NCBI GenBank assembly: GCA_000708835.1
Contig: DF237628.1
Coordinates: forward strand, 2,886 to 46,136
Reading direction: 5' to 3'
Source: Klebsormidium nitens
Taxonomy: Eukaryota; Plantae; Klebsormidiophyceae
Length of the DNA stretch: 43,251 bases
The notes under the pieces are model-generated. The model saw nothing but the letters and a program-made list of their open reading frames with translations, made no database searches and was not told where the DNA came from. Shown here one piece after another: positions 13,226-39,800 of this stretch. The stretch's first letter is position 1. The number at the start of each line of letters is the position of its first letter. Made by a program: the position numbers and the translations under genes.

Positions 13226-13318
13226 ATATGTGAGGACAGGGATTCTACCGTTTCACTTTTGCTGGTTGACCGGCTTCGAAAGATGGAATCAAGTGTTCTG
13301 TCTCACCCCTTCGTGCAG

Positions 13319-16141: not shown

Positions 16142-16657
16142 TCAATCCGAGTCTGAGTCTGAATTAGAATCAACCGATTCTGCCTTCTTTGCTTGGGCAG
16201 GCTTCTTTCCGGCGGTATTTGTTTTGGGCTTCTGAGTGGCTTTACTCAACTTCGAAAACTTCTTCGGAGACTTCATACTTTCGATATCTTCAATCTCCAT
16301 CTTTGTAGCTATACTCTGAAAGGTGCCCTCGAATGGCAGACCTGTTGGGCGATTACTTTTCTTCACCGGACCGATCTCGACCGAGTATCCATATTTCTTG
16401 TTCAAGGAACCTCGTGTGGTCTCCTGTATAAGGACAACTACCCTCTGTGGAAGAGAAACCTGTTTCCCCTGACATTTCTGCGTTCGAAACAGTTGAGATC
16501 CCGCTCGGGCCCCTGCTTGACAGACGCGCCCCTTCTTTGCATCGATTTCAAGTCGCGTATCCTTCAACAGAGCAAGGGCATCATTCCCCTTCGAATCGTA
16601 GGCAGCAATCACCCGAAAGCTTCGTTTCGTGGATTCCATATTGGATGTTTGGTGCAT
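16142..16657 (-). CDS. MC1-like non-histone DNA-bending protein (archaeal MC1 / giant-virus MC1-like family) with Lys-rich and acidic tail
   Basis: KRSFRVI..YDSKGND, CQAGARAG, VVLIQETTRGSLNKKYGY and SNRPTGLP align by eye with the MC1 pattern (RNFVLRDEDGNE / PRQAALKAA / IRLRE / KNRPAWMP) and with the viral ETTRGS..K.Y.Y variant. Confidence 0.72.
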   Translation of the reverse strand: MHQTSNMESTKRSFRVIAAYDSKGNDALALLKDTRLEIDAKKGRVCQAGARAGSQLFRTQKCQGKQVSLPQRVVVLIQETTRGSLNKKYGYSVEIGPVKKSNRPTGLPFEGTFQSIATKMEIEDIESMKSPKKFSKLSKATQKPKTNTAGKKPAQAKKAESVDSNSDSDSD

Positions 16658-16811
16658 TTCTAATGATAAGTTCGTAGAAAATAATAATCCCGCCCCCTAA
16701 TGCATATCTGACCATGCGGATTTAACAATCCCCGCTGCAAGCGATGATATATAGTGCATATGGAGTGAAACGCATGCGGAGAAACAAAGAAAAAGTGTCA
16801 AGTGCGTTTTA

Positions 16812-17867: not shown

Positions 17868-17891
17868 TAACAACGAGGCGGTTTCACGGCG

Positions 17892-18935
17892 ATGGAGTCC
17901 AACTTCGAAGCAGAGGTACGCAGAAAACTGAAGGTCCAATCTCCGGATAAGGCTCTCCGTGGAGCTCCGCCAAACAGATCAGATTCAACAGTGTCTGTCT
18001 ACATCAGGCAACTTAAAACCGTATATGCGGCTGGAGACTTTGGACCGGACGTGATGAACGGTCTCGACTGGATCGAGGACCACGAGCATGTGATTTCAAC
18101 CATAGAGAGTCTCACGTCGCGTGACGGCAAGCTTCTTAGATCATTGACGAAGAGTAATTATGCAGCCCCTTTTGCTATTCTTGCTTCTGGAGAGACGCAA
18201 TCAGCTTACTCGAAGTACATGCAGAGGATGAAGCCAACCGAGGAGGAGCTCGATCATTCTATGCAGAGGAAGACGCCGAAAGAAGTCGACAATTGGATTC
18301 CTTGGTCCGAAGTCTTAGAGAAGCGATCGGAACTTGATGACAAGATCAGTCGCTATGTCGTGCCAAGATTCCATAAGAAGGAACGCTTAGATCGCCATGA
18401 TAAGCAGCTGGTGATGGACCATCTGATCCTTTCCCTCTACACGATGCCGCTAGGACCTCTACGGAATGAGTACGCGGAATGCATTTTTTTGATGAGGGAA
18501 CACGAAAACGATTGCGTTGCGATCAAACCGGGTGACATCAACGTCGTCGAGTTGAACGACGATCCCAAGAAGTGTTTCTTTCACATTGGTCGACACAAGA
18601 CTCTCGAAAAGGATGGCGTTCGTTGCCTTGAAATTCCCGAAGATCTCGTAAAGGTTATACTCAGATCCTTCAATCTGATTCCTCGAAAATACTTGATTCT
18701 CAAGAGGCATTATCTCGTCTGGAAAGATGAACCGATATCGAATTTCACCGTAGTTCTCAATGATCTTGGTCAGCGCCATTTCGGTAGAAACCTCAGCTGC
18801 ACTTTGCTTCGACACATCTCACATACTGAACAGAGTCCGAAGTTGATGTCCCGTGGTGAAGTGAGAGCAAAGGCGCAATACATGGGCCATAGCATGAGGA
18901 CTGCGGATGAATTGTATAACAGACGATTCGAGTGA
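17892..18935 (+). CDS. Tyrosine recombinase/integrase, Polinton-like virus/NCLDV type, 347 aa, intact
   Basis: Catalytic set: R in PLRNEY, K in GRHKT, R in TLLRH (first His of HxxR replaced), H in YMGHS and Y in ELYNR. The N-terminal core-binding region contains STVSVYIRQLK. Confidence 0.88.
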   Translation: MESNFEAEVRRKLKVQSPDKALRGAPPNRSDSTVSVYIRQLKTVYAAGDFGPDVMNGLDWIEDHEHVISTIESLTSRDGKLLRSLTKSNYAAPFAILASGETQSAYSKYMQRMKPTEEELDHSMQRKTPKEVDNWIPWSEVLEKRSELDDKISRYVVPRFHKKERLDRHDKQLVMDHLILSLYTMPLGPLRNEYAECIFLMREHENDCVAIKPGDINVVELNDDPKKCFFHIGRHKTLEKDGVRCLEIPEDLVKVILRSFNLIPRKYLILKRHYLVWKDEPISNFTVVLNDLGQRHFGRNLSCTLLRHISHTEQSPKLMSRGEVRAKAQYMGHSMRTADELYNRRFE

Positions 18936-19273: not shown

Positions 19274-19384
19274 CGAACGAGGCTTCACAAGATCCCGAAC
19301 AAGCGCCGCGTTCTTTTTCGACAAAAATTTTCTGGGGTTGAAACTTATAGGGGGCTCTTGACCCTTCTTCGGTCTTTGAAAAAC

Positions 19385-21390
19385 ATGACAACGGGTTCGA
19401 TTGCCAGTGTGTTGGAAGCATATGCACAAGAAGGGTTGTACGCTGTCCCCGCAAACGTGAGAGCAAAGGACGGATTGAAGCACATTATAACGATGCCTCA
19501 TACAAGAGGCGATGACGCTATAAGATCGGCCTCTGATTGGAGAGCGGCGGGAGGCCGGATTACGCAATTCATTGAAAAAGAACGATACAACTTTCTGGCT
19601 GTCAAGACGGGGGCCATTTCGGACATCTTCGTGCTCGATATTGATGTACGAGACAAACCGGAGAAAGATCTTCTAGCTGGCATGCCACTCTGGAACGAAC
19701 CGATTGCTGAGCACGGAGAGCCAGACACCTTGAAGGCCGTTTCTGCTAGCGGAGGCTTTCACTACTATTTTTCATATGGTTGTTCCATTAGAGATGGGCT
19801 TCAATCAGGAAAATGTTTTGCTGGAATTGATTACAAGGAGCATTACTTTGGCATAGACGCACGTGGAGATGGGGGCATCGTTCTGGCTCCACCGGGCTCA
19901 CCTGGAATCGGGTTGAGTTATACATGGTGTTCGAAACCCATAAGAAGCAGCATCAGAAGCGCTCCATCATGGCTAATCAAATTTCTCAATGATTCAACCG
20001 GGAGGTCTTTCAAGAGGAGTCTCGCGTCGGCCTGCAACAAGATCCAAGAGCAAGCAGTGGACGGCTCCGAGCTCGAGCAAACAAGGGGGCTCGAATCGAG
20101 CACCGTTGAAGAAGATATGCAAGTAGAGGTGGATATCAATGTCCCCCACAATACACAATCACTTGAGCACGAGAAGATTGCTGACGCTATGTTGAATCTA
20201 CTACAAGACGCTGGGCTCGCCACGAATGTTCGATTTTCTGGCAATGTGACCTTCCGTGGTCCGTACGGTATGCTCTATTCATTCATCTGTGACGGTCCCA
20301 GAACATGCATCCATGGCCATCATCATAACGGTAGCAACAATCTGACTCTTGTGAAGCGAGGGTGGAAGATCTTCTACCGTTGCTTTGGCAACGATTGCAC
20401 AGACAAGCCTCTCACGGAGCTTGGAAATATTCCAATATCGATCTCATTGTTGGATGCCAATCCAGTACGCTTGCACCCCACTCATGATTGGAGTACCTTT
20501 CCAAATAATATAAAAACGTTGTCAAACGATGCTGTGGAAGCACAGATGACACTCATTAGGCGGAACATGACGCAACGCTACCGCGGACTAGCGGCAATCT
20601 TCTCAGCTATATGTCTCGTTGACGGACGCGTCATCGCCGAGGGGAAGTCCTTTCAATACTGGAACGGTCGTCGGTGGATCATCGACAACGCGTTCCATAT
20701 ACAAGCCGTGTTTAGTAACCACATGGCTCGTATTATACACTGGTATTCGAACCAGAGACTGAATGCTTTCAAGCGAGAGATTTGTGCACATATAAGAGGC
20801 TCTGCAACACGGCATAATGCTTCGTCGACGATAGAATCAGCCCTTCCAGACTGGGCATTTGATCCAACTACCGATGAAGAAAGAAAAGCATGCAGTACCG
20901 CATGGAGGGTAGTCAACAAAACGTATCCTTTCCCAGCAAAAAGCGATCTGGTGGATCTAACACGGGGATCTGAGATCCGTGTGTGCCTCGAATTCGTCAT
21001 GAATTCCTTGCAAGCTCCTCAATCTCTGAGCGAGCTGATAAAAATTGCCAATCCGTTATTGTTCGCCTGCGCTAACGGTGTCATAGACACCCAAACGGGA
21101 AAGTTGCTCGCCTTTCATCCTGCTCATCTGTGTTCACGTGCGTCGAAAGCGACTTTCCGCGGAATGCCAAAGGCCGGAAGCCGATTTGAGAGGTTTTTGC
21201 TTGATTGTTTCAACGATGACAAAGAAGTTCTCGAATGGTATCAGCTCTTCTGCGGCTATTGCATGACCGCGGACATGAGCGAGCAGATTTTTCTTGTCAA
21301 ACAAGGCGCCGGATCTAATGGCAAGTCGTTGACAAAACTGGCAAGTCTCGAAGTTCTTGGGAGCTACGCTGTTGTTATGTCCGACGATTG
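19385..21390 (+). pseudogene. 5' part of a bifunctional Prim-Pol + D5-like SF3 primase-helicase, interrupted by the KDZ transposon
   Basis: Prim-Pol motifs AVKTG, FVLDIDV, SGGFHYYF and IDARGDGGIVLAPP. D5_N motifs FQYWNGRRW and FACANGVIDTQTG. Walker A GAGSNGKS. The frame breaks right after GACGATTG. Confidence 0.9.
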
Positions 21391-21540
21391 GAGTACACAT
21401 TAATGGCGGGCGTGAATACCAAAAAGGTGTCTTTCTGAAGTCATTCTGGAGGCATTCACGTGAACTTCTTTTACTCCCTGAATGAAAGGGTGCGCAGGCA
21501 GCTATACTCACCTGCCATCCTCTTCGACCATTCCCATGCC

Positions 21541-22730
21541 TTCAAACATTCAGGATTCAGATACGGTCTGAATCCGCCATGAATGAATGCATGTAAGTGC
21601 GCTCGANNNNNNNNNNNNNNNNNNNNNNNNNNNNNNNNNNNNNNNNNNNNNNNNNNNNNNNNNNNNNNNNNNNNNNNNNNNNNNNNNNNNNNNNNNNNNN
21701 NNNNNNNNNNNNNNNNNNNNNNNNNNNNNNNNNNNNNNNNNNNNNNNNNNNNNNNNNNNNNNNNNNNNNNNNNNNNNNNNNNNNNNNNNNNNNNNNNNNN
21801 NNNNNNNNNNNNNNNNNNNNNNNNNNNNNNNNNNNNNNNNNNNNNNNNNNNNNNNNNNNNNNNNNNNNNNNNNNNNNNNNNNNNNNNNNNNNNNNNNNNN
21901 NNNNNNNNNNNNNNNNNNNNNNNNNNNNNNNNNNNNNNNNNNNNNNNNNNNNNNNNNNNNNNNNNNNNNNNNNNNNNNNNNNNNNNNNNNNNNNNNNNNN
22001 NNNNNNNNNNNNNNNNNNNNNNNNNNNNNNNNNNNNNNNNNNNNNNNNNNNNNNNNNNNNNNNNNNNNNNNNNNNNNNNNNNNNNNNNNNNNNNNNNNNN
22101 NNNNNNNNNNNNNNNNNNNNNNNNNNNNNNNNNNNNNNNNNNNNNNNNNNNNNNNNNNNNNNNNNNNNNNNNNNNNNNNNNNNNNNNNNNNNNNNNNNNN
22201 NNNNNNNNNNNNNNNNNNNNNNNNNNNNNNNNNNNNNNNNNNNNNNNNNNNNNNNNNNNNNNNNNNNNNNNNNNNNNNNNNNNNNNNNNNNNNNNNNNNN
22301 NNNNNNNNNNNNNNNNNCTCGAACCACATAAGTGCCCAGTGTCCCAGCTCGTATGCTTTCAAACATTCAGGATTCAGGTACGGCCTGAATCCGCCATGAA
22401 TGAACGCATGTAAGTACGCTCGCTGCACACTTGAAGTGCCCAGAGTTCAACTCATGCGCCTTCAAACATTCAGGATTCAGGTACGGTCTGAATCCGCCAT
22501 GAATGAACGCATGTAAGCGGGCTCGAACCACACAAGTGCCCAGTGTCCCAGCTCATGCGCCTTCAAACATTCAGGATTCAGGTACGGCCTGAATGCGGCG
22601 TGAATGAATGAATGAGTCCAAGTGCGCTCGCTGCACACAAGTGCCCCGAGTCCCGGGTCGCATGCCTTCAAACATTCAGGATTCAGGTACGGTCTGAATC
22701 CGGCATGAATGAATGCATCTGAGAGTTGCT
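21541..22730 (+). repeat. Left subterminal tandem array (unit about 103 bp) with GGATTCAG-N7-CTGAATCC palindromes
   Basis: TTCAAACATTCAGGATTCAG recurs at 21541, 22358, 22461, 22562 and 22667. The array spans the N gap. Confidence 0.9.
21607..22317. other. Assembly gap (711 N)
   Basis: Run of N flanked on both sides by the same tandem repeat unit. Confidence 1.
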
Positions 22731-24468
22731 TCAGGTCAAAGCATTGCACAGGTGCCAGACTTCTGTTTCGTACGAATTAAACACTCGAGATTCAAGTACG
22801 GTCTGAATGTAACATGAAGGAATGAAGACAGTCCGGCAGCACACAGGTGGCCAACTCCCCGCTCGTACACCCTGCTCCCGGTTTCCTAAACTTTCAAACT
22901 TTGAAATTTCATGTACGTACTAAAGGCGGCTGGCCTAAACTTGTGATACACCCTAGCTCGTAGGACTCAAGAGCGCGGCTCCCAACTCGTCACAGACCTT
23001 CAATAATATTAGGAGTTAGGTGCGGCCTGATTGCGGCTAAATAGATAGGGCGAACGGAATCTTCAGAGCAAGCCCACGGCCAGCTTTATGTGGGCCCACC
23101 TCACTGCGCCCAAGTCCCCAAGTGGCAGGACGGTTTCCTTTGGGCAGGCCCGCGATTAACAACATGTAGCAGTTGCCCTCGCTGTGCCGCCTTCCCAGGC
23201 AGAGGCCGTTTGAAACCCCCTGACAGGCCCGCGATCAGGCAAAACAGGGCTGCCATTCCTGCACCGCCCCCCAGAATTGTTGCTGAAGGGATCCCTCCGG
23301 ACAAGCCCCCGGTCGTCGGCATGTGAGGGCTGCTTCCGCTGCGCCACTCCAATAGATTGGTGGGCGAAGGGATCCCCCCGACGGGCCAGCGGAAGAAAAC
23401 GTGGGGGCTGATCTTCTGCGCCGCCCCCCTGGAACTGTGGGCATTTGGACCCCTCCGCACAGACCCGCAGACAGAAACCCTGGGCTGCCCTCGCTGCGCA
23501 CCCCAGCTTGATTGCCAGGCAAAGGGATCCCCCCGGGCAGGGCCGTGGTTGCGGTCTGCTCTCGTTGCTGGAACGCAGTATGGAAAGACTACCGTGCGCC
23601 TCTGAAGTGGCAGGACCCTCACAGCCCTCCTTTCGCAAGCCCCTACGGTGTGGTGGCCTCCCCATCGCGGCTGTCTCCACCGCCTGAAGCGCCTGCATCT
23701 GCAGCGCCAACAGCGCTTTGGTGGGCCCCTGCTGCAGGCTGGCTACCAGGCGACCGGCGCCCCAGCAGCGCCTGTGCGGCGCGGGCGTCAACTCACCAGC
23801 CCCGTGCAGATGGTGGGGAATTCCGGAGCGCACGCGCCACGACCACTGGCAGCAGGAGAGGGGTTGCGCGTGCAGGGCTGAGCACAAAGCACATCACGCG
23901 GAGCACGAAGGGGGAAACCAGGATGTGGCCGCCACCGTACTGCGCAACAGCCCAGGATGTGTACTCCAGCCCAGCCCCCTCGAAATCTCCAAAACCGCTG
24001 AAACTGCATTGCCGTAGTAGAAGGCAGCGAGCAAGACGCCGTTGGTGGCCTGATCCTGGCGCTGCTTGATGGCGGCCGTGGTCAAGGCCATCAAAAAGGC
24101 TAAGCGCTCCAGGTAAGCCACCAGGGTGAAAGCGAACCTACACAGGCTACAGTTGGATGTGCTGGCCAGCAGAGACCACTTTTGCGGTGCACACTCCACA
24201 GCCATCGATCAACCTGCATCGTCGACTCGCAAATTCAACAAACCAGGATGGATTTGACACTGTCCCAAAAGCCGGCATCAAAAGTTGTGCCGTCGGTCGG
24301 TCAGTTTCAACCAGTGCCAGGTCGACCGGCAAACCTCCCGGCGAGCAGTGTCAATTAATCTGATTAACAATTAGGTAATTGATGACCTGCTCCCAGATCT
24401 GAGCGATGAAGCTGTAGCCCTAGGAGAAGCTCAAGGTTGGATGTTGGAAGCAAAGCAAAGTAGACGCC

Positions 24469-27400
24469 ATGGCGTCTGGTCAAGGCAAGCAGCAAGGGGG
24501 GACCCTGCCGTGGCAGAAGAATAAGGATAAGGACAGGGGCAACAGGCCACTGTTCACAGGCGGGCAGAGTGCTGAAAACCAACGGGTGTCTGCCGGAGTT
24601 CCATCCATTAGCTCTCATCAAAGACCTCGGTCCTCGGTGTTTCCTCCAAACTCAAGCATAAAAGATACACAGCAGACTGAGGTACCCCAGGACATGGGTC
24701 TAGGAAAGGAAGCAACAATGCTGTCTCTAGTGATGGAACCCCTCAACATGGCCGAGTTTCTCACACTGCTTGCAGCCCTAGACCTCTACCCGCAGCCATT
24801 CCCAGAGCGTAGCAACTACATTGCTGACATAATCAACAACGAGAGGGCAGCCCTGTCTGCTAAGGTCACGTCAATCGAAGTAAGCTCTATCATTGAGAAG
24901 ATCAGGCTGCATGATGCAGCTCCAGAACATGCAGGGAACACAATCCGGCACCACTTCCCTGCTGCTTTCACTGCTAAGAGCCTGAATCTGCTGCATGTGG
25001 TTATGCCCAGCGTCACCAAGTGCTTCAGCTGTGCTGACGAGCCAGATCTAGCATGGGTGGCACGGCCAATAAGCCCTTTGTTCTTTCCATACGAAGGAGA
25101 ACCAAGGCAAGGCAAAGTGTTTCGGAAGTTCTGTCCCAAATGTGGCGCAGTATATCATCTGAATTTCTTCTGCCCACAAGGCTTGAGTGGGCCCGCTGTG
25201 CCGTATCCTAAAGAGCAAGACTGTGAGCAGTGGTTCCAGCAGTCGCGAGAAACCGTGATCTCGAGGAAACTTCTTGAGGCCCACGACTACAACCTGTGAG
25301 CCCACCAGCCCTTCAGTCCCCTTCTCGTGTTGATACAGTTTGCAAAAAGGCTGCAGAATCTTCTGTCTCTTATTTCCAGGTGTGGCGACCACCGCTCGTC
25401 AGATCCATTGTTTCTCATGCACATTTGCAACGGTCATCAATTCGATTGGTTCTGCTACCAATGATCTAGCCAGTGCTCTTTCTTTCCAAGAGCACAACAG
25501 CGCACTCACTCATTTCCCACATCCGTCCAGGTACTGAAATCAGGCAAGCTTTCTCGGAGCTGTCCGCACACACAACTCAACTGAACAGCTTCAGCGCCAC
25601 TCTGGCTACGCCCATCTAGCTCATACGCCGCTCGTCGCTCGAAGGTCAATTCGTGGAGAGCTGAATCGCGATCGGTTTGAAGAAGCCTACCTGCGTCATT
25701 GGGCGATCAGATTTGCGCAACAGATTGGTCTTAAGTTGCTGAATCAACTTGATCTTAGAAAGTCTACCAACGATCTGATTGCCCAGGTCAAAGACAACGC
25801 TTGGGAGCACCTTAGGCGTGAGGCGCACGAGCACGCGCAGGCAGGCTGCTCTAACCCAATGTGCTCGCGATACATACACGTAGACGGACAGGCTAAGTGT
25901 GTCCGAGCTGTGTGTGCCGAGAAATCTGTAGAGCAATTCACGACGGCAATAGGGAGGGTTGTCAAGGGCTGCACGCATACGCCCCTCCCCCGCAAAAAGT
26001 TTTGCAAGCTCCACATGCCGCAGGCATCACAAGCAGAGGCAGCGTCAGAAGCAGTAGGCGAAGAGGCAGAAGAAGAGTTAGGATTAGTAGAGCCAGATGA
26101 AGAAGAGCCCGAAACTGAATGCTCAAAAACTGACGTGTACGAAGACATCAGCGGTGATCTCGACGAAGAGGTGGTCTTCATCTCTGAATCTAGATCCAGA
26201 CCCCCTGAGCTAGAGAACCCTCAATCAAAAAAGCAGAAACAAGTTGAAGTGCAGGACCCAATAGCTCGGATTGCAGATGCACCTTGGTCACTCCGCACAA
26301 GGCGGGGGCAGGCACGTGTTGAGGACGAGAATGTGTACAACGTGGAGCGCGTCATCAAGAGCAGGATCAGGAATGGGGTAAGAAGGCCAGATCAGAAATA
26401 GGGATGCCAACTTTGTAAACCTCTTGCGAATCAAGTGCTCTCGCAACCAAAGCAGTCAGTACCTTTTTTGCTTCTGCCTAGGTACCCTGCCTCTTTTCCT
26501 CTTATGCCTCTGATTCTCTTCATCGCCCGCAATCTGTTTGAGATTCTTTGAGGGACCCCCTCATACCCCTCTTTACGCATTTTCCCTCATGGTTTATCCG
26601 CAGAAGGAAGAGTTCTGGACGAAATGGGAAGGGGAAAGTGTGTGCACATGGGAGACGGAAGAAAACCTCACTTGCTTTGGGTCTGAGTGTGTAGAAGACT
26701 ACAGAAGAGCTCAGCTTCCAGGTGCGTGGCTGTGTGCTGAATCTGACTGTTGCTGAGCGCTTCATCTTCAAAACTTATACCCTGTGCAACAGACTTGGCT
26801 CAGGCATATGCGCTAGAACCCGGCATCTTGCATCTTCATGAGAAAGAGCAGTGAGCATCAGACTGTCGAGAGCAAAGGAAAGCTGCTTTCTGAAAACTCT
26901 TCTCTCCCCACTACAGGAAACTTCTACGAAGCAGACCGCACGGATCTGCAGCCAGATGATGCAGAGCAGGGAGATGACAAGACGCAAAGAGTCAAGGCCC
27001 AGTCCTGCTCCCCGCGCACGTATGCTGAGCTTGGGAAAGGACGCACTGCAGGCTCTCTTTGGGCTTTCCGTGCGTGCGGGTACAGCTTCCCGCCAAACGA
27101 AACTGTCCTTTGTGAATCATCTACACAGGTGAGCCATACTTGCCCATTCGCTCCGGTGCTGTAGTTGCTATGCTTACATCAGCTGTGTGAAGACTTGTCA
27201 TATCGACCTTCACACTTCCACCGTCTCGCACTGTCTTCCAGCATCGTAACAGCAAGCAATTGAAAGTAGATCAACAATGGGTCATCAGTTCAATGCAATG
27301 TCCTTTCTGGCGCCACCTGACATCAAGAAGCCTCATTGCAGGTTTGGCACTACCTCTGTGAGCTCTTCCGCGATACCGACTTCCCCGAGTTCGTTGGCTT

Positions 27401-28056
27401 TGATGACATGTGTCATCTTGCGCGGTTCATACTCTCCGGGGAGAGGACCGCTGTTTGCCCCAAAGCGGCGGAGTTCGCAAGGGTCAAAGCAGTGGGTAAG
27501 TAGCACCCTAGGAGCAGTGCAACTCTGATTCGGCAAATGCTCAATACGCTAGGATCCCAACAGTGCATCGCTTGCATGGGCATCGCTTGTAGAGGAACAT
27601 AGGCTGTTCGAAAACCCTAACAGCAGGAGGCATTCCATGTTGCAGTCGACAAATTCCACTTCGACAAGAACCACGTGGGGAAGTGGTGCAAGGAGCACGT
27701 GAACCCGCACCACCATCCAGAGCTCACGAAAGCAAACATGAGCATCTGTGAGCAGCGTTTCAGCTGGTTCGGGAAGTACAAGCACATACTCAGGTAAGAG
27801 TCTGCGAAGCGAGCGCAGAGAGTCATTGACAGAATTAAGGACACGTCTGTGATCAGCACAGCTACTTCTGTCCTGAAGCACCTTGTCTTGAAGTACAGAG
27901 GAAATGCACGACCAACTGCAACCTCCTAGAACCTTCTTATGCAGGAAGATGAACGAGCACCGGTTCCACTTCCTGCTCCTGATTCTGTGCCAGATTGACC
28001 ACATCCAGCGGGACCGCGACCTAGCGCTGCGACGTGCAGCAATCTTATCAGCTTAG
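24469..28056 (+). CDS. Multi-exon KDZ transposase with CxC clusters and an inserted chromodomain
   Basis: CxC5-like KCFSC...FCPKCGAVYHLNFF; HVDGQAKCVRAVC (first Asp); CTHTP...FCKLH; chromodomain YNVERVIKSRIRNG|KEEFWTKWEGESVCTWETEENL; RTAG...ACG...ESSTQV; VGFDDMCHL (second Asp); VDKFHFDKNH...WC; NMSICEQRFSWF (Glu); final exon KMNEHRFHFLL to the stop at 28056. GT-AG junctions are consistent where checked. Confidence 0.9.
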
Positions 28057-28117
28057 ATAACTTCTATATCAGGCGAGGACTCAGAAACTCCGTGCTTCTC
28101 AGGAACCAGCTTCTTCG

Positions 28118-30604
28118 TTGGCGTTGAAAGGAGCACCCCTGCAAGCAGTCAATCTGAAGCTGAGTCAGAAATCTCAAAGTGCAGCAACAGCTAAGAATCC
28201 TTGCCAGATTGCCTTCTCAAAGAATTCTTCATGTCCTTGCAGATCAGCAGCACCAAGGATTCAACAGAATTGCTTTTGCAACAACGGCTTAGAAGGTGAG
28301 CTCACACTTCATTCCTCATGTGGTCCACCCTGCTCGGTAGGTAGTCTTGGAAGGTAAGCTGGTTGCAGCCGGTTGCAAAGAGTCAGGTACTCGGACGGGC
28401 AGCTGGGGATGATCTTGCGGAAGAGGTCGTTTGGACGAACCATGCCCGGAAGGGTGCCAGCCTCTGTAGACCCGAAGAAGTGTGTGTCGTCGTCATCGTG
28501 AGAAGAAAGGTGATCCCAGAGGCGGATGATGTCCTGCTTCTTGCCAAACGTCTTCTTGCTCACGACCGCAGTGATGTTGATGACCTCGTCCTTGAAGGTC
28601 TGGAAGAAGCGCTTGATGCAGAGCTGCTCTTCGCTCTGCAGAAGATTCGAAATAGGCAATCAGCGAGTTTGCAGATTTGAGTTTGCCTCAGATGCTTCAG
28701 TACATTTGTGGAATTCTTGCTAAAGGTTTTCCCCTGTTCTCGCAGATAAGTGACTTACCAAGACATCCCCTGAATTGAGCCGCCCTCGCCTGGACCCGTC
28801 GTCGTCCCCACTGTCCTCATCCAGGTCAGGAAGTTCCCACTCCCAGAACTCATTGCAGAATCGGATCATGCTCTCGTCACCCTCGAACAGAACACGCTGC
28901 TTCAGCACCAGCTGCGAAATCTTGATTGCACAGTCCATGGCCTCGCTGCTGATTTCAAGCATCTCGTCTCTAGGGTCGAGCGAGTCGCCGGTTTCTGGAT
29001 TCTCAGCCTCCTTGAGCATGACGACAAGGATGTGCAGAGCAGCTGCGATCTGGAGAGCTTCTCCTTTCACTTTACCGAAGACTCCTGCACGTTAAACATA
29101 AGCAGCAGGGTCAAGAAAACCACCGTTAACCTCAGGATATGAACCCCTCGTTTCTTCTGATCTGACCCCTTACTTAGCGATCAAGATTCTGCGCTGCTTT
29201 TGTCTTGGTCCTTACCTGCTTTCGAGAACATGGAGTTGCTCGCTAACTCCGCGAGAAAGTCCTGGACTTTGTCGAAGAAGCTGGCGTGCATCTTGTAGGC
29301 TTCACCACGCACCACAAAGGCGCGTTTCAGAGCTGCTCCGGTATCAATGTTGTGCGCAAAGTCAAATATGAAGAGGAATACCTGGAGAGACCACATGACA
29401 ATGCCTTTGTTTGACCTGCACTTTATCTTTGTTTCAAATCAAAAGCAAACACGAAGTTCCAGGTCATTAGATTCGTCAACAGTCATGCGTGTCGAAGTAA
29501 ATTCGTACCTTCATGAGCAAGTCATCGAAGTCGGTGATGGTCTTTCTCCAATCGTCGCCGCTGATTTTGAGTTTGTCTGCAGGATAACCATATGAATACG
29601 TCAACTTCAAGCTCCTCCAATATTGCGTTGCACTTTTGGACATCTCAATCAAGATACTTCCTGCTCGATGGACAGGCAGTCTTTCGAAAACAAAGAGCGA
29701 GGTGAGAAACGTCTTACCTAAGTGCTCAAACACGCCAGGAATGAACGTGATCAAGAACCGGTTTAGCAAACCGTCCTTCGGAGTCTTGAAGAGCTCGACA
29801 CTGAGCGGCTGAGGCTGCATGTAGCCCGAAGGGATGAAGTGCGTAAAAGGAATGCTTGAATTTGGTCGGCCAACAGTCTCCCTGTCCCATGACGAACCCC
29901 CCTTCAGTGAGAGTATCTGCGTTCGGTCTCCTTCTCCCTTCTTGTAACCGTCCATCCAGGCGAAGAAGTAGCCGAATTCCTCAAGAAACATCATTCGGGC
30001 ATGGTTGACGTCATGTTTCAGCTCCTGGAATAACGCCTCCAGAGTCGCCTGTAAACGAGTTACAATATTTCAGAGAATTGCGTGGGACATTTTCCTGATG
30101 CGAGATGATCAATTCTAGAATTGGCAACCAGTGGAGTTGCAACGAAGGACAGCAATAAATGATCGGACAGAAATGGCTGGAACTCACACTTTTAGCAAAG
30201 AAACTGAATGGTTTGATTTCTTCGTCCTCGTCCTTGTCCTCAAGAGCTTTCGTTTTGATCCTCTCGTTGATCTTCGTTTCGACTGCAGTAGCAATCTGCT
30301 TCAGCTTCTTGAACGCAGGAGTCTTTCCGATGGCGCTGTACGCTACAATGATACACCACAGGAGCAGGCGCTCCTCCCATTCGTGTCCCTCAACTTCGAC
30401 AGTGGCATGCGGACCAAGCAAAAGACAGGTGAGGCTCAAGATTGGCAAGAACAGATGCCAGGATGACAGACTCGCACGGCGGCAGAAAGACTCGCACAGC
30501 GCATAGAGTTTCTCAGGCACACACTCCTTCAGCGCCTCTTCTGTTGCAACGGAACTTGCTTGTCGCATCGCCTTATCAACCGCGGCGTCCGAGGTCCTCG
30601 CCAT
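28118..30604 (-). CDS. Multi-exon DUF3987 (YfjI-like) P-loop NTPase/helicase
   Basis: LLWCIIVAYSAIGKT (Walker A variant), MFLEEF (Walker B), DRTQILSL.GGSSWDRET, GYMQP and DGLLNRFL match the DUF3987 signature. The 3' end is approximate. Confidence 0.75.
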
Positions 30605-30960
30605 GTTGCAAGCCACAAAGAAGCCGTTCAAAACAGTGAAAGCGATTCTCGAAATGACAAAATCTGCAAGTCAGGCTCCCCTTTTGTACCCAGGACTCGG
30701 TTGCCAGTCTTCCTTGGCAGTCTGGCTTTAACAACACTAGTCAGACTGCTTTCGACGAACAGCGTGTTTCGAACCTGGAATTCCATCGAAATCGAATCGG
30801 GAATGAACATCGGCATCGACATCGAATGGCAGGATTCAGCTGAACGCAAAGCTTTGCAAGTCAAGTCTGGTTGGTTGAGGCTTGAAGAATCAAAGTAGGT
30901 TTGATCCGCGTCAATTGTTCTTCGCAGAAGGATTGTAAAACAGCAACAATCTCAGCGCCA

Positions 30961-33900
30961 ATGGCGCAAACAGGCGCTGTGCGCAAATCCTTCTGGATGA
31001 GATTTCCAAGGCAGGCCGCAATGCTCAAAGCATGGGAAAAGTGCGGACACGATAACGCCAAGCCGTTTGCATCACAGGATCACCAAACGGGAACATACAG
31101 CTATATTCTCACCACGTACGACGAGATCTGGGCCAGGGCCCTCGGTCGATACTTCCCGACAGGCACAAGGCACCTGTATGAGCTCATCCACGAGGTAAGA
31201 ATGCTCTAACGAATAGGCTTCTGACACGTGTCTTTCCAATCTTGAAAATACCAGAAACTTACGTTATTTACGTACTTGTGCAGGGCTCCTCTGTTCATCT
31301 GTACATCGACTTCGAGTTCGACCCCACCCTAAATCCCAACCGGAATCCGGATGCTATGGTCGATGCTCTGCTAGAGGTGATCGCCAGGCTACTATACGAC
31401 ACATACGATGCACAGATTGACGAGGGGGGGATCGTCGAGTTAGACGCATCCTGGTCAGGTGAGATGCTAATAACCAAAAGTCTCGTTTTTCTTGTCTTGT
31501 ATGTTCTAAAGCTGCCAGACTATCAGGGTTCGAGGAGTCTCGTGTTTCGTCCTGCTATCGGATCATTTGCTCCCTTCCTTTTAATGCCAGCAGACAGACT
31601 TTTGGAACAAGGACTGTACTCTTGCTTTCTAGTCTGCTCAGGTGCTTTATTAGGGTTCTAAGGGCTGGATGTGTGTTCTTGTACTACACTCAAACATTTT
31701 CTGCATATTCTGCATTCTCTGCACTCTGATCGAATGCTTTCATTCATTTCCTTGCAGTCAGAAGTGAAATTGCATGTCTTCTGAAACGGTCTTGACCATC
31801 AGGGTTCGAAATGGCCATGTCTTTCTGTTTCTTGAATGCCGGCAGACGGTCTCCTGGTACAAAATCTGTACTCTCTCTTTTAAGCGTTTTCGTGCGCACT
31901 ATCAGGGTTCGAGGTGTCGTGTTTGTCATACTCTGCTACACTCACAAATTGAGCGTTCAGTCATTTCTTTGCAGCACAGCAGAGAAGTTACCTGTCTGTT
32001 ACCTTTCGCTTATGTTCTAAAGCTGCCAGAATATCAGGGTTCGAGGGGTCTCGTGTTTCTTCCTACTAACAGATCCTTTGCTCTCCCTTCAATACCAGCA
32101 GACAGACTTCTTCAACAAAGACAGTACTCTCGCTTTCCAATCTGCGCTCGTGCATTATCAGGATTCTAGGGGCTGAATGTGTGTTGCTGTCACTACACTA
32201 ACACAATCTCTACATATTCTGCCTTTTCTGCACTCTGAATGCATTCATACATTTCGTTGCAGTCAAAATTGAACTTGCATGTCCCCTGCTCTTCTTCCAA
32301 AGCTGCCTGACCATCAGGGTTCCAAATGGCCATGTCTTTCTGTTTCTTGAATGCCGGCAGCCGGTCTTCTGGTACAAAATCTGTACTCTCTCTTTTAGGT
32401 ATTTTCTTGCGCACTATCAGGGTTCGAGGGGTTGTGTGTGTGCTGCTGCGCTGCGCCCCACGGATTGAACATTCATTTATTTCCTTGCAGGAAAGATCTC
32501 GAGGCACATTGTGGTACATCTAAAAGACTGCGTGTTTTCCGACAACTCCTATCATCTGAAATGGTTCATGAACAAGAAGGTGAGATCGCCACAATGAAGT
32601 CACATCTCAAGATGTTACTTTCTAAACGGTTTCCTGGACAGATACCGTTGCCTTTTTCTACAGAAAAGCGCAATATCAGGTGAACATATATGCTTGTGTC
32701 ACGTGCTCGCAGGTCGTTGATTACATTCTCAGCAAGCGCGACAGCGACGAGCTGTGCACAATCCTGTTCGTCAACAAACGGAACGGAGACACATCGTACA
32801 CTGGCTTGTGCTTTGACACAGCCGTATACAGCCGCAACCGCCTCTTTCGCCTTGTATACTCGACGAAGCACAATCGGTCTGAACAATTCATTCCGACTCA
32901 CCGACGCAGGCCTTCACAGGTGATCACAGGGCTCGATGCACCCCAAAACTCAAAGATTCTTACATTCACATATCTTCGAGCAAGGCTTGTCCAGATCCTG
33001 GCCGCTTGTACATGCTGACAACCAGCTCACTGTCCTCTCTCTTTCCATACAGGGCCCGATGGAAGATTTTTTCGCCACACTCGTCTGCAATACAAACGAT
33101 GAAGCACGCCAGCTGGAGTGCCCTCGGATGGTAAGCGAAGCATCTGCCGCTTGCAGCACAAATCTTACATCCTCCTTCGCTTCTAGGTTCAATTCTGTCA
33201 GCGTCAACCCCATAAACCGTCCAGTACTTTCTGAATCCCACTCCGGGGGTGTGCGTGCGGTGGTTCGTGAATACATTCACTTGTTAAATTGCAGGCCCTC
33301 CCCTTCCGTTCTCCTAGCTCGAGACCCAACTACCAGCACGAAGATTCAACGGCAACTTACAGGGAGCTCTCAGAGTACGTCAAGGCCGTTGCTTCACAGA
33401 ACGGTCGACAGGGTGAGCATTGATAACGTGACTCATAGATTGACATACAGCCAGTCTCTCAGCTTGCAGCTCTGAATTGAAGAACAATCGGTTTTAGGGT
33501 TTCAGAACTAGAAACCCTAAAACCCTAAATGGAACATTCGGTTGCTCAAGGGTTCTCCGCTTACGAAAACTCGTTAAGATTTGGTGTTGAGATTTCTCTG
33601 CCATTCTGGAGTCCGGACATCAATCTTCCCAACATCAAGCTCATTTCGCTCTGTCTTGATTGCAGCCTGCATACGCGACATGAAAGTGTGAAGATTTCTC
33701 TGCCAATCTGGAGTCCGCACATGATCAATCTTCCGCAACATCAAGCTCATTTCGTTCTGTCTTAACTGCAGCCTTCATACGCGCCATGAAAGTGTACAAC
33801 GGGATCATCTCCTACGAGATTGCCGGCAACCACTATTGCGCCAACATCGGACGTGAACATACCAGGAATAACGGTGAGCCAATTCTCACAAGCCTCTTCT

Positions 33901-34367
33901 CTTAAAAGCCTTCATAGCACACTGTCCTGGGACGCTTTGGCATTCGTGTTGTAAGCAGCATCAAACGCTGTTCCTTAAGAACTTCAGCAACCGATTAGTC
34001 AGACAGCCCCTCTGTTTGCAGTGTACTATGTGGCGGACCTGCGCAGCGAAGAGTGCACCCTAACACAAAAGTGTCACGACTCTTACAGCTGCGACGGTGA
34101 GACAAACCGGCTCATGACTCGATATTTACCAGCAGCAAATCGATGATTCCCGGATCGATCAGCGTCGCTGCAAGCTCTAGAACTCTGAAGTTGTCAAAAG
34201 CGTAAATGCGGAAACGTGCAAGTCCTGCCTGAAGTTCGTTCTTGCTTTCAGGTTACCGGTCACCACCGCTACACATCCCCCACGCCATCGCGAAAGTTAC
34301 AAGAGAGCATCTCCAGAAAGCAAACGACGGTGCGTATGCGGGCCTGCTCTTCGTTTTCGAGGGCTGA
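30961..34367 (+). CDS. PRIMPOL: Multi-exon PRIMPOL-like primase-polymerase carried by the transposon
   Basis: RHLYELIHE|GSSVHLYIDFEF (motif I DxE), KISRH (motif II SxH), FDTAVYSRNRLFRL (motif III) and FFATLVCN. UL52-type Zn finger YCANIGREHTRNN|VYYVADL...QKCHDSYSCD|GYRSPPLHIP. Exons were read across GT-AG junctions. It may not be the host ortholog. Confidence 0.88.
31499..32490. repeat. Tandem duplication (period about 512 bp) inside PRIMPOL intron 2, with nested ATCAGGGTTC repeats
   Basis: TATGTTCTAAAGCTGCCAGA occurs at about 31500 and 32012. GGCCATGTCTTTCTGTTTCTTGAATGCCGGCAG occurs twice. ATCAGGGTTC occurs six times. Confidence 0.85.
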
Positions 34368-34744
34368 CACTGCTATCGTAACCACGCGGGCCTTCAATTG
34401 GCCAGCTTCAGTGAAGCTGCTGATTGTTCTGTCCATGCTTGCTGCCTTACTCATGCAACGTATCCCCTGCAAAAATGTGTCGGATCAGTAAGAAAGCAAT
34501 CTTTCACTGCAGGTCATGACGCTGGCGAAAGCCAGTCAGGCGACGACCAATGGGACTCAGAGTTTTCGAGTCTTGCTGTTGCTCTACTGGACAGGGTGTC
34601 AAAAAGAGTTTCTAGATCAGCCAACAGTCCGCAGCTGCCAAATTTGTTTGCAGCAATGGACGTGTAAGGGAGAGACGCATCTTGTATAGATTTGCTCTCG
34701 TGAGTAGAAAATGGCAAAACATGGTGTCCAGTATTCACAATCGG

Positions 34745-35295
34745 TTCATTCAGGCTTCACGTGAATCCTGAATGAATGAACCCCTAGCTCCACAGAGTAG
34801 GTGGCTCCTGATCTTATCCACGTCGATTTTTGAATAGTGATACGATCATTCAGGTTTGCTTCATTCAGGCTTCACGTGAATCCTGAATGAATGAACCCCT
34901 AGCTCCGCAGAGTAGGTGGCTCCTGATCTTATCCACGTTGATTTTGAATAGTGATACGATCATTCAGGTTCGCTTCATTCAGGCTTCACGTGAATCCTGA
35001 ATGAATGAATCACCGCGTGGGAGTATGACGACAATATTACTAGCCATAGCCGAAAGTGTAGAAACGACCATTCATGTCCCATTCATTCACGATTCATTCA
35101 GGCATCACGTGAATCCCGACTGAATGCCGATTGCATGAATGAATATGCTGTTCATTCACGATTCATTCAGGCATCACGTGAATCCTGAATGCCGATTGCA
35201 TGAAGCAATGAATGACACTGACGTAGAGGTTCAAATTGAAGTGATCCATGTTCAATTCATTCATGAATCGTTCAAAGTTCACCTGAATCCTGAAG
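34745..35295. repeat. Right subterminal palindromic repeats of the KDZ transposon
   Basis: The near-perfect 32-bp palindrome TTCATTCAGGCTTCACGTGAATCCTGAATGAA occurs at 34745, 34860 and 34974 (period about 115 bp), with variant copies from 35090 to 35295. Confidence 0.9.
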
Positions 35296-35354
35296 TGTCA
35301 ATGAACGTTCAGAAACGGAATTCAGAGCAGCCATTAATTAATAGTGGACGATTG

Positions 35355-36186
35355 CATTATCGAGGCGGGAAAAAGATCGGCTGGCTCAGCTTCGAGCCAC
35401 ATCATGGCTCTTCGGGGCGGGCGGCTCGCAGAAACCGATGAATCGGGTGAGAAAGCGGTCTTGAACGAGGCTGCGATGAAAGCTGTATCGGCAAGGGGAA
35501 AAGCCACAGCACGCGAGCTGCAATGCAGACAAGAGACATTCGAGCTTACCGCGAAGCCCGTCCTCAATACCAACTACCGGCCTATTCTTCAGAACGTGTC
35601 CTATTGTGTTACCCGACGCTTGGCACTCCTCCCGATGCTAGTCACTTTTTTACCTCCTCACAAATTCGACCCTGGGAAACCGCGCCAAAAGCTCATTGAC
35701 ACAACACTTGAAACCTATCTGACAAGTGACCAGGGGCGGGACGAAGGTCTTTCTTGGTATACACAGGGGGCGAAACGTTATCATGACCTGAAGCGAGCAA
35801 ATCCAAACACGTTACCACTGATGCGCCGTCCGCGTGTTATGGAGGAAGCTGTCAAAGCATACATCAACGATTCAGACATTGCCACGCGGTTGATCGCTGA
35901 TTGTCTTGAATTCGAAGACATTCAATCCGGAGAAAAAGCAGAATGGCACTTAGCGGTTGGTGAACGGCTTGGAGAAGCCTTTCGAACTTGGTTGAAGGAA
36001 GAAGACCTACACAGCGCGTTGTCGGCAACGCAGCTGAAAAAGCGCATTCTGGAGTATGCTGAGGGGAAAAATCGGATAGTCAAGGACGGGCAATTTACGG
36101 ATAGCCAGGTACAATATCCAGGACAGTTTAAAGGCCTTTCGGGGGTTCGACTAGTGCCTGGCCGCGAGTCCAACGCGTTGGAGTAG
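35355..36186 (+). pseudogene. 3' part of the interrupted D5-like SF3 helicase
   Basis: LRGGRLAETDE (Walker B), ARELQ, PVLNTNYRP (motif C) and TRRLALLP. It is in frame with 19385-21390 after excision, giving a 945-aa product. Confidence 0.9.
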
Positions 36187-36885: not shown

Positions 36886-39800
36886 CTAACACAACAAGAG
36901 ATGTTGCCGTACAGCCGGCCACCACGTGTCCGCTCTGCCCGCAATGCGCAGCTTCGGTTCGTCAACCCGTTTCAGATCGCTATTCCTTCCACTGACGAGG
37001 TTAGCAAGGATGATCATGAGCGCAACGAGGCTCCTGTACCATGCTTGCGTCTTGAAGTTCACGAGAAAGGCGTTGCATGACTCGACCGCAGAGGTGTTGA
37101 CCCATCGCACAGAGTCGTAGTAATCTGCACGTGAATGAACAGAAGAATTGATTGCGACCTCTTGAAAATCCGAGTTGCATCCTTTGTGAATGCCGTGTAA
37201 AATGAACACTTCTGCAAAGATATTTAGAACTTGTCGCCTTCTATAGAGATCATCGGAAGCATTGAACTCGCTTCCTCAGTGCGCGTCGCCGCGTCTGCAG
37301 GAGCCTAAGAAAGATGCCGGCGTGTTCAGACTAGGCCCGTTGATATTCTTACGCATTCAGAACGCAGCGCATGATCAAATGCTCAGTCAAAAGCCGCCTC
37401 CTTCTTCTATGTGAAAGGTGGGGCGATATTGACTGTATTGCTCCAACCCCACCTCCTACACACACTCTGACTTGGCGCCTTCCTCGACTCGGATCGAAGC
37501 ATATGTACCATCATCCTGCAGACGCGTCAGGATCTTACCTGGGTTGTACGACGGGCCACATTTGTGAGCTTCGGAAGTTGTGCGTTGAAAGTGAAATCTG
37601 CATGGATGGCGCATGGATTAGGATCAGGACAAAAAGTGCACAATCGAATGGGATTGCGACCATTGTATGGCACTGGCGTAGGGCTCATAGAAACCTCTTC
37701 GATTGAAGCTGCCACATAGCTTGCAAAAATTTTCGCTTACCTGTCGACGAGAAATCGAACTTCCGCAAAGAACGTTGGCTCTCTCCGCATCACGTAGGCA
37801 CGCAGCTTGCAGGCGTTGTCGTAGACCAGGTACGCGGGGAGATCGTGGCGATTGAGGCGGGTGTATAAGACCGTGAACGGGTCTCGCGGCGACTCCCCAC
37901 GAAGCATCACGTGGAACCCATATATCACGCGATGCGAGCAGCAGAAAACGAACCCGCCCTTGGTGTGCCGTCGGAGACTCCTTGCCTTTTTCACCCCGCT
38001 CTCGAGGGCGATCTTGGCATCGAATTCGCCGACCATTAGCCCGCTCCGGCAACGATGCTCCTCGTTGGGCTGGAGAGACCTCCCGAGGTCGTCCTCGAAC
38101 GGCTCGTATTGCGGGAGGGGCCGTTTTTGCTCCCACCCTGGAAGCGGGTAGCAACCCAACTCTCGTTGCTCCCGACCGTAGGGATGATCCGCGGGCAAGG
38201 GCCCTGGCTCCGACCCGTCTGGCTCGAGACCAAGTCTGTCATTGAGCAACGTCCTCTCTGGCGGGAGCAGAGCGTACTCGTGCGGTGCGGGAGGGGAAAG
38301 GTTTTCGACCCCGGGGAGGAGCGCGTTTGCCCGGGCTGCCCAAAAGTCGAAGGCCTGCTGCTGCTCGACGGTCAGAGGGTTCGGCTCTCGCCCTAGCCAG
38401 ACGCAGACATCGAGGCCTTCGATGGCCGACAACGCCCATCCCGCCCGCCCCACCCCGAGTCCCACGGCTCCACGTCCAAAGAGCGTCAACCGGTAGAGAT
38501 GATGTAGCGTCGGATAGAAGAAGCGAGGGTACCGGTCGCCGTAGTGGTCCAGCAGCCGACGCAGGATTGGAGAGTGCTCTGCTAGCACGACCTTGTCGTC
38601 ATCGTTTGCGGCTCCCCCGAGGAGCAGCTTGCGAATGACACTCAGGGCCTTCCCATGCTGGATGAGATTGGAGTCGTCCGAGACTGAGTGCGGCGCGCCG
38701 AGAGTGTAGACCAGCTCCGCCCATCTGCTGGGGCAGTGCGGAGGCCAGCAAGCCTCCTCTTGCATGGCTTCTCTCTCGATGCCGTCGTGCAGCTCGTGCG
38801 CTGCTTTGTTCTTCGATCGCATCTGGCCGACCTGGTCCGCCCGGACCCAACGGCGCCAGTGCAGGAGGACGGGGTCCGCGTCGGCATCATCCGGGTCCGG
38901 AACGAAGTCTGTGACGCCTTGCACGTCGTCTCTATTGAGCGCGATCTGCACACAAAGACTCCGTGTCAGAGCATCGAACGCCTCAATCGTCGATGTTTTG
39001 TTTACTTGGAATAAAGGATTGACATATTGGTACAGATCGGACAGCTTCTTAGGAACATCAGCAGCGCGAGTCCAGGTCGGAACTCACCAGAAGCTCCTCA
39101 TATTCTCGCGCACTAGGAGTCTTTCCCAGCTCTGGATCGGCAGTGTGGTGGGCGCTATATCGGGCTATAAGCGTGCGGATTTCCGGCTGCTGCACTAAAC
39201 GCGTCTTCAACCCTCCACCGAAAAGAGACGCCGCGCAGTAGTTGCTTCCGGCCTCCATGACCTTCCGCACGTTGCCTCCGTCGGTGCCTTGACTGGGCGC
39301 TGTGAATGGTCGGAGCTGAGCGGCATCCGTTCCAGCCAGACCGCCCTCTGACGCGTGGCGTCAGCGCAAGCGAGCCCCGCGATGCCGTCGCAAAGGAGAA
39401 CCTAGTGTTCACAAAAAAGTGACCACCCTTGTCGATATGATTCACATGGACAACAATCTAGCGCTCTTGCGGCCGTAGAACCCACAAGTCTAGCTGCCTC
39501 CGCATCAGAAGGTCACTGCCTCTATGCCAACGACGTGCCTCCACTCCCATCCCATGCAGAAATCGTTACTACTTCGTCTCATCAGCAGCGGAAGCAGAAA
39601 GTGGAGACAATTTTGTGATTGAAAGTTTCTCAAGTGCCTTCTTTGTTACCGACAGAAGAGCGTGGCAACACATACCTCTGGATGTGGACCGCAAATGCTG
39701 CAGCACTCCATGATCTGCCGTCCGCACAGCTTGTAGAAGCCGAGGCTCGCTTTGCGCCAAGTCTCTTTGGTCAAGAGAGTCGCGTTGGGGTCGTAGAGAC

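Follow-up and report, generated by a model that had tools for sequence, protein, structure and literature searches.

Giant transposable elements of the KDZ superfamily that create target-site duplications (TSDs) of 8 bp are already known from fungi and from green and brown algae. Both Zisupton and the Dileera element Zisupton-1_PGr are reported to generate such 8-bp TSDs, and Kyakuja is described in the same account with 7-bp TSDs, CA..TG termini and no terminal inverted repeats (TIRs) (PMC12730594). Cryptococcus KDZ1 is given a length of 10,944 bp, TIRs of 236 bp and an 8-bp TSD, together with a CxCn cluster and several genes, while the domain structure of canonical Zisupton is stated there as KDZ plus CxC4 plus SWIM (PMC11343200). 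Among algae, a single-copy Zisupton-3_cRei of 31.7 kb is reported to have excised in a Chlamydomonas mutation-accumulation line (PMC9977147), Zisupton and Kyakuja families are reported as curated in green algal relatives of Chlamydomonas (bioRxiv 10.1101/2020.06.13.149070), and the curated giant KDZ families of Ectocarpus are described as carrying extra genes and transposases that are often pseudogenised (PMC12477816). A first-pass annotation of the locus described here had started from the premise that exact ends are rarely defined for algal KDZ elements; judged by the accounts of the Chlamydomonas excision (PMC9977147) and the Ectocarpus families (PMC12477816), this premise is dated. Our literature search returned no paper pairing Klebsormidium with Zisupton. 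The locus lies on a stretch of 43,251 nucleotides from Klebsormidium nitens (assembly GCA_000708835.1, contig DF237628.1, positions 2,886 to 46,136 of the forward strand), which we call the window and to which all coordinates refer. It contains a real, precisely bounded insertion of a multi-copy transposon family within a D5-type primase-helicase gene. This element, which most likely belongs to the KDZ superfamily with its clade unplaced, adds a member to the known giant elements.

The ends of the insertion are exact, it is flanked by an 8-bp TSD, and the interrupted gene is restored upon its removal. The sequence GACGATTG at 21383-21390 recurs at 35347-35354 as a perfect direct repeat. Since the bases flanking the two copies differ (C versus G before, G versus C after), the repeat is exactly 8 bp long, in agreement with the TSD claimed in the first-pass annotation. 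The inserted DNA itself comprises 13,956 bp (21391-35346). If the left TIR of 17 nt (21391-21407, + strand) is compared with the reverse complement of the right TIR (35330-35346, + strand), 12 of 17 positions match, and ATTAATGGC occupies positions 9-17 of both tips, hence the same offset. It is located at 21399-21407 on the left and reads as GCCATTAAT at 35330-35338 on the right, and each of these two 9-mers occurs once within the 43-kb window. The imperfect 17-bp TIRs of the earlier annotation were thus recovered as well. The termini of the element are GAG...GTG, with the right tip ending in ...TAGTG. Both borders coincide with the positions at which contigs from other copies begin to match (21390/21391) or depart (35346-35348).

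Removal of 21391-35354 fuses the open reading frames (ORFs) 19358-21403 and 35344-36186 (translation table 11) in frame. With the first ATG (19385) taken as the start, the left part (19385-21390) contributes 668 codons plus 2 nt and the right part (35355-36186) 1 nt plus 276 codons and the stop, so that the fused frame has 945 codons (668 + 1 + 276). Based on Pfam, PHROGs and TIGR01613, the left part (+ strand) encodes Prim-Pol, D5_N and the start of a P4-type helicase including a GAGSNGKS P-loop, which we take to be the Walker A motif. The right part (+ strand) encodes the remaining helicase domain and was recognized by PHROGs, TIGR01613 and the C962R primase of African swine fever virus, to residues 671-779 of which it aligns (E 3.9e-8). 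Two Pfam matches of the left half are above their cut-offs, namely Prim-Pol PF09250 (residues 21-205, E 4.5e-12) and D5_N PF08706 (residues 424-618, E 6.5e-12). Five PHROG DNA-primase profiles cross the break, with the left match ending and the right one beginning at adjoining profile positions: 590 and 596 for phrog_1156, 534 and 545 for phrog_6088, 537 and 545 for phrog_1829, 612 and 624 for phrog_2478, and 590 and 605 for phrog_16950. The NCBIfam model TIGR01613, the C-terminal part of P4-family primases, behaves alike (left half 5-106, right half 120-296), with NCBIfam scores of the interrupted gene lying far under the family cut-offs. Consequently, as left and right halves adjoin in all six profiles with gaps of 6-15 positions, they represent one gene that was split, and the claim that excision restores a 945-codon ORF stands.

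The target gene shows the order archaeo-eukaryotic primase (AEP), D5_N and superfamily-3 helicase, with the helicase being collinear over both halves. It shares the combination of Prim-Pol, D5_N and P4-type helicase C-terminal part with the D5 primase-helicases of large DNA viruses and with the P4-type primases of phages and plasmids. However, no close relative was found in IMG/VR, where a scan with the left half gave four pattern matches, none of which was confirmed. Since the break falls between the GAGSNGKS P-loop and the remainder of the helicase domain, the insertion likely inactivated this gene, which probably derives from a virus or a mobile element. The insertion had also been called recent, which agrees with a TSD free of mismatches and with ORF halves that have both stayed open. 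Within the left half, contigs at 90-95% identity depart from the gene at 20330, 20809, 21074 and 21266, and read depth triples at 19919-20479. These loose ends and the raised depth point to diverged D5 paralogues elsewhere in the genome.

The termini of the element are not confined to this site. Five public sequencing runs from two samples and two studies hold the left half of the D5 gene, all stored as contigs, which were aligned to 19358-36186 (four runs) and to 35200-35560; these runs correspond to at most two samples, one of them probably the assembled strain. At the left end, contigs cease to match exactly at the border and continue into a different flank each, at 21390 in run X3, at 21391 in X4 and at 21391 in X5. 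At the right end, contigs cease to match at 35346 and 35348 (X5) and at 35347 (X1), with other flanks beyond. Shared termini at other places, on which the first-pass annotation had staked its case, were thus found on both sides, and one pair of flanks carries a TSD of its own. In X4, the left flank terminates in ...GCCACAAC. In X1, the right flank lies on a contig of 6,303 bp whose depth (15.3) is that of a single copy; here CCACAAC comes directly after the G that is matched to 35347. These two flanks are a second insertion in the same sample with its own 8-bp TSD, GCCACAAC, and we estimate the probability of a chance 8-mer match between them, given the few flanks available, to be of the order of 1e-4. 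Over the whole stretch, hundreds of C>T and G>A changes were counted in run X5, each kind being confined to its own contigs. Such data look like bisulfite sequencing, or else like diverged copies, and because of these differences the X5 flanks were left out of the pairing.

Read depth in X1 reaches 241-533 over 35239-35342, within the terminal ~110 bp, compared to 16.4 in the D5 flank and 16.6 in the element body. The right tip is accordingly present in ~15-30 copies, whereas the body in its full length occurs once at an identity of at least 90%. The dominant contig has 288 bp and a depth of 241.5 (~15x single copy; X1 and X3) and joins 22688 to 35237. Upstream of 35237 its sequence departs from the present copy, and other parts of it match the left subterminal array. 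Since this contig connects left-array sequence to the right tip, the family probably includes abundant short, non-autonomous derivatives that share the right tip. The first-pass annotation had further supposed the family to be probably active; the empty site that it proposed as a check, which would join 21390 to 35355, was not seen in the contigs of four runs, a result of little weight with at most two samples.

Repeat analysis and self-comparison revealed subterminal arrays next to both tips. The left subterminal region (21408-21606, + strand) contains the first CATTCAGGATTCAG...CTGAATCC...ATGAATGAA unit at 21536-21593. It is followed by a run of 711 N (21607-22317) and by a tandem array (22318-22830, + strand) with a period of ~105 bp (105 bp over 22325-22718). 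The right subterminal repeats (34741-35300, + strand) consist of a 115-bp array at 34741-35009 and more units up to ~35300. The repeated unit of the arrays is CATTCAGGATTCAGG...CTGAATCC...ATGAATGAA, and the left and right arrays are inverted relative to each other with a complementarity of 71-83%. This would be the usual layout for subterminal repeats that are bound by a transposase. The N run begins 216 bp inside the left end. Since the array units flanking it are 92-95% alike and a single X5 contig connects 21604 to 22525 across it, it most likely represents an assembly gap within the tandem array.

One might ask whether repeat-rich DNA was wrongly scaffolded between the halves of an intact gene. 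The 711-N gap so close to the left end would fit such an artefact, and so would the right junction of the present copy: among the contigs listed for it (X1 and X3) none spans 35356-35394, a hole in contig coverage that proves nothing. However, a misjoin would yield neither an exact duplication of 8 bp whose removal reopens a frame of 945 codons nor inverted tips with the same 9-mer offset, and it would not stop exactly where other copies end. In addition, an X1 contig of 8,174 bp and its neighbours span 22673-34774 with 0 differences. An assembly artefact is therefore extremely improbable, and we treat the locus as a genuine insertion.

A single transposase-like gene was found inside the element. 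It is annotated as KFL_006790040 (referred to as P0005), contains several introns and extends over 24469-28056 on the + strand, as supported by tblastn, phmmer, Pfam and a family alignment. In a HMMER scan, the frame 24424-25296 returned P0005 at 99% identity. Exons of P0005 were located by tblastn at 24469-24885, 26021-26377, 26604-26741, 26916-27137, 27327-27794 (with an inner intron) and 27937-28053. The annotated model treats 24886-26020 as an intron, whereas the related proteins P0001, P0003, P0004 and P0037 gave collinear tblastn alignments to the open frames 24691-25296 and 25532-26380. Since paralogues align to open frames within the supposed intron, the true product is longer than annotated and would, by our own estimate, comprise ~800 aa. 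The annotated protein of 502 aa misses the N-terminal half with the CxC5-like cluster and the region of the DGN motif.

Six K. nitens paralogues, encoded at the loci KFL_012810030, KFL_011160030, KFL_007310030, KFL_001820010, KFL_000580360 and KFL_003600140, share 39-55% identity with the window gene, and a word-indexed search with the frame 25538-26398 returned four K. nitens proteins named 'chromo domain-containing' at 36-46% identity. An alignment of eight family sequences displays a fixed order of features: a CxC5-like cluster, h-DGN-x-KV-x-R, a second cysteine cluster, an acidic stretch and a chromodomain, followed by C..R...G...CG..FPP.E..ES, DD.CH, VDKFH...NH.G..C and N...EQ.F. These motifs are kept in all eight (8/8) aligned relatives. 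In the window gene the corresponding series is a CxC5-like cluster, HVDGQAK, a cysteine cluster, an acidic stretch and a chromodomain, and then CG..FPP.E..ES, FDDMCH, VDKFHFDKNHVGKWC and N..CEQRF. The chromodomain is recognized in the paralogues at E 1e-8 to 1e-15, and the Chromo match of the window itself is weak (26514-26753, + strand, E 0.0012). A protein of 635 aa from a public assembly, P0039, shows 32% identity and possesses the DGN motif, a chromo-like insert, CG..FPP.E, YDDACH and VDKFHFNENH. As P0039 shares the split architecture, the form with a chromodomain inside the core also occurs beyond the paralogues of K. nitens. Ahead of the transposase start, the element includes a block of 64% GC (23000-24100) in which long open frames of the two strands overlap; it matched no known family.

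Several lines of evidence connect this gene to the KDZ superfamily. Pfam was scanned with 142 stop-to-stop frames of at least 45 aa over 23796-35573 at E up to 0.05. With phmmer, the frame 24424-25296 found relatives among 1.8 billion proteins (E 1.2e-7 to 7e-4, aligned residues ~177-291). When 26 of these were scanned, five attained the CxC5 cut-off (P0014 with 27.9 bits, P0015 with 26.9, P0016 with 34.6, P0018 with 27.2 and P0029 with 27.2) and eight more matched below it. An N-terminal CxCn cluster is thus assigned by transitive homology, not by the window ORF's own score. The KDZ core profile PF18758 matches residues 382-477 of P0005 at a score below its cut-off (E 0.017, profile positions 119-209 of 217), spanning DD.CH and DKFH. 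The three named Atlas clusters nearest to the C-terminal core of P0001 carry PF18758 (score 0.90, 207 of 256 features); such a match of protein-language features is a lead and not a test, and PF18758 is found on 27-47% of the members of those clusters. Furthermore, the element shares with Zisupton and Dileera the 8-bp TSD, seen twice (GACGATTG here and GCCACAAC at the second site), and TIRs, represented by the 12 of 17 matching tip positions, the shared 9-mer and the inverted subterminal arrays. Because the CxC5 homology, the sub-threshold PF18758 match of P0005, the Atlas clusters and the fit of TSD, size and accessory genes agree, KDZ is the favoured assignment.

A number of results count against this assignment and have to be weighed. 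The CxC5 match of the window ORF 24424-25296 (+ strand) reaches E 0.022 and 15.3 bits, which is below the cut-off of 26.9. PF18758 on P0005 likewise reaches 15.3 bits and falls short of its cut-off of 26.6, and the other four of five family members scanned gave no match to it at E up to 10, although the chromodomain that splits the core would be expected to depress the score of a single-domain profile. A profile search with the C-terminal core returned only Klebsormidium paralogues and P0039, none with a precomputed KDZ domain, and P0039 has no KDZ match in Pfam. No SWIM or other zinc finger of canonical Zisupton was detected in the 142 element frames, nor in P0001-P0005, P0037 and P0038. AlphaFold on the 8-sequence family alignment gave a predicted local distance difference test score (pLDDT) of 39.1 and a predicted template modelling score (pTM) of 0.26, and a DDE fold is therefore unsupported. 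Apart from the assignment, the present copy itself may be damaged. The paralogue alignment is fitted by an intron 25296-25530, with GTGAGC at 25296 as a strong donor and CCAG at 25527-25530 as acceptor, but splicing to 25530 reads ...N-L-Y-stop, with an in-frame TGA at 25535-25537, two codons past the acceptor. When all GT/GC-AG pairs were tried, the sole stop-free partner for the donor at 25296 was a weaker acceptor at 25548, at the cost of six codons. Since the 8,174-bp X1 contig agrees without differences, the sequenced sample does contain this TGA. The transposase of the present copy may thus be defective, or may be rescued through the acceptor at 25548. Taken together, the KDZ identity proposed in the first-pass annotation is supported by the CxC5 relatives and the Atlas clusters, whereas PF18758 stays below its cut-off, which makes it likely rather than proven. 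As no SWIM domain was found, we file the element as KDZ and not as canonical Zisupton.

The ends could alternatively belong to another superfamily with 8-bp TSDs, a relative of hAT, P or MULE (Mutator-like element), with the KDZ-like gene being a passenger or part of a nested element. Members of hAT typically have an 8-bp TSD, short imperfect TIRs and subterminal repeats. An 8-bp TSD is indeed reported for hAT (PMC12730594). P elements make TSDs of this length too. Such an origin would also suit the sub-threshold match to the KDZ core and the abundant short copies, which have just the ends in common. Nevertheless, while the element resembles Ac/Ds-type hAT elements in all three of these features, no BED finger or hAT dimerisation domain was found, and its gene shows KDZ-type features. 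At E up to 0.05, the 142 frames revealed no hAT, BED, THAP, P-element or MULE domain (nor a KDZ core), and other weak Pfam matches such as ADK_lid, CoV_NSP2_N, P460 and F-box were below cut-off and counted as noise. In addition, the KDZ-like gene is the sole transposase-like gene inside, and the CxC5 and Atlas evidence favours KDZ. We thus consider a different superfamily quite improbable and retain KDZ. Within KDZ, Kyakuja does not fit: although its transposase superfamily is related, the 8-bp TSD, the GAG...GTG termini and the presence of TIRs set the Klebsormidium element apart from the published description.

Compared with Zisupton and Dileera elements as they are described (Zisupton-1_PGr, Cryptococcus KDZ1-3, Zisupton-3_cRei and Ectocarpus KDZ), the Klebsormidium element agrees in its 8-bp TSD, its TIRs, its giant size (14 kb versus 9-31 kb), the N-terminal CxC-type cluster ahead of the core and the presence of accessory genes. 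The accounts of KDZ elements also mention that an intact transposase is often lost and that movement occurs in trans, which is reminiscent of the present copy. In contrast, its KDZ core is weakly recognized by Pfam, no SWIM domain was found, and a chromodomain and an acidic stretch separate the DGN motif from the remaining core. Its TIRs of 17 nt with 12 matches, accompanied by long subterminal arrays, differ from the 236-bp TIRs given for Cryptococcus KDZ1, its accessory genes are PrimPol-like and DUF3987-like instead of TET/JBP, and its host is a streptophyte alga.

On this background we consider it probable that the transposase-like gene of the 13,956-bp element encodes a divergent DDE transposase of the KDZ type (Zisupton/Dileera-like), which would have cut and pasted the element. 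The enzyme would bind to the repeat units CATTCAGGATTCAG / TGAATGAA as well as to the ATTAATGGC tips, and it would cut the target with an 8-bp stagger. Its putative catalytic triad would consist of the D of HVDGQAK, the D of FDDMCH and the E of CEQRF, and the chromodomain, located between the first and second catalytic parts, might guide the element into marked chromatin. Both the PrimPol-like gene and the DUF3987 gene would be accessory cargo, and the abundant short copies would be mobilised in trans. One might further speculate that the element represents a separate streptophyte lineage of KDZ, in which the chromodomain in the core directs insertion to DNA that is silenced and bears histone marks, for instance endogenous viral genes, and in which PrimPol and helicase form a repair or replication module serving a cut-and-paste element of 14 kb. 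This more far-reaching idea seems unlikely at present.

The predicted cargo consists of two divergently oriented genes. Pieces of a DUF3987 (helicase-like) gene, likely accessory, lie at 28312-30670 on the - strand, with Pfam PF13148 matching at 30014-30670 (-; E 2.4e-7, 30.7 bits, cut-off 27) and at 29479-30069 (-; E 7.3e-4); the part below 29479 is deduced from open frames. Pieces of a PrimPol-like gene follow at 31182-33475 on the + strand. Its frame 31182-31658, which contains a DFE motif, aligns to residues 102-172 of human PrimPol (5l2x, E 0.008), covering the D-x-E motif and an LD-S stretch. The downstream exons were recognized by eye, as was an AEP motif-III-like stretch in a downstream frame, which was seen by eye alone. 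A PDB search with the frame 32626-33015 gave a chance match only, Atlas was uninformative for the PrimPol-like frame (top score 0.79), and NCBIfam and PHROGs gave no matches for the accessory frames. A derivation of the cargo from the D5 gene was considered and rejected, as tblastn of the D5 halves matches only themselves. The PrimPol-like gene also contains a tandem duplication of ~480 bp at 81% identity (31500-31974 and 32011-32490), which could represent a small family of intronic repeats. Read depth is raised at this duplication (26-44 versus 16.6 over 31700-32260).

These two genes might have arrived separately, the locus then being a composite of a smaller KDZ element and a later nested insertion (~28.1-34.7 kb) that bears them, so that they would not be cargo of the family. 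Nested insertions that became fixed are described for the giant Ectocarpus KDZ families (PMC12477816), and both the separate, divergent arrangement of the PrimPol-like and DUF3987 genes and the internal repeat with its raised depth could be read in this way. However, no pair of direct or inverted repeats bounding 28-34.7 kb was found by self-comparison or among the 25 of 115 inverted pairs listed, the Pfam scan of the 142 frames revealed no second transposase or integrase, and the GC content is even over the element body. We therefore regard a composite origin as rather unlikely and keep to a single element with accessory genes.

The element lies in a stretch of lower GC content. The value is ~45-49% over 16-37 kb, in contrast to 54-60% for most of the flanks, which dip to ~51-53% at 15-16, 37-38 and 42-43 kb. 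Long intron-free frames without Pfam match (17871-18932, 16145-16696 and 36889-37275) occur in the low-GC stretch at 15500-37500. This stretch might as a whole be foreign or mobile DNA, larger than the element and including the D5 gene. Outside it, an intron-free frame of 547 codons (13104-14744) encodes a Herpes_ori_bp-like helicase (E 3e-21), and its first ~80 residues show weak repeated matches at eight upstream places (4748-12809). Core genes of nucleocytoplasmic large DNA viruses (NCLDVs), namely major capsid protein (MCP), packaging ATPase, DNA polymerase B (PolB) and VLTF3, were not found among the 73 frames of at least 100 aa outside the element. The neighbouring core genes that would mark an endogenous giant-virus insert were thus not seen here. 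A published survey reports such genes from other parts of this species' genome: it lists phycodnavirus-like DNA polymerase, MCP, ATPase and VLTF3 for Klebsormidium flaccidum and leaves the D5 column of its table blank (Gallot-Lavallee and Blanc, 2017, PMC5294986). To link this blank column to the broken D5 gene is speculation.

The findings leave the known workings of such elements unchanged, and the chromodomain inside the transposase core, the pair of PrimPol-like and DUF3987 genes and the target gene are points of modest interest. For the genome of Klebsormidium, they identify KFL_006790040 as a mis-modelled transposase and reveal that a transposon disrupts a D5-type primase-helicase gene, a possible reason for surveys having missed D5 in this genome. 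For the superfamily, the element is a base-exact giant KDZ-type example in a streptophyte alga, with defined ends, TSD, subterminal repeats, a second site and short derivatives, and it can serve as a starting point for curating a superfamily of which little is described close to the base of the land plants.

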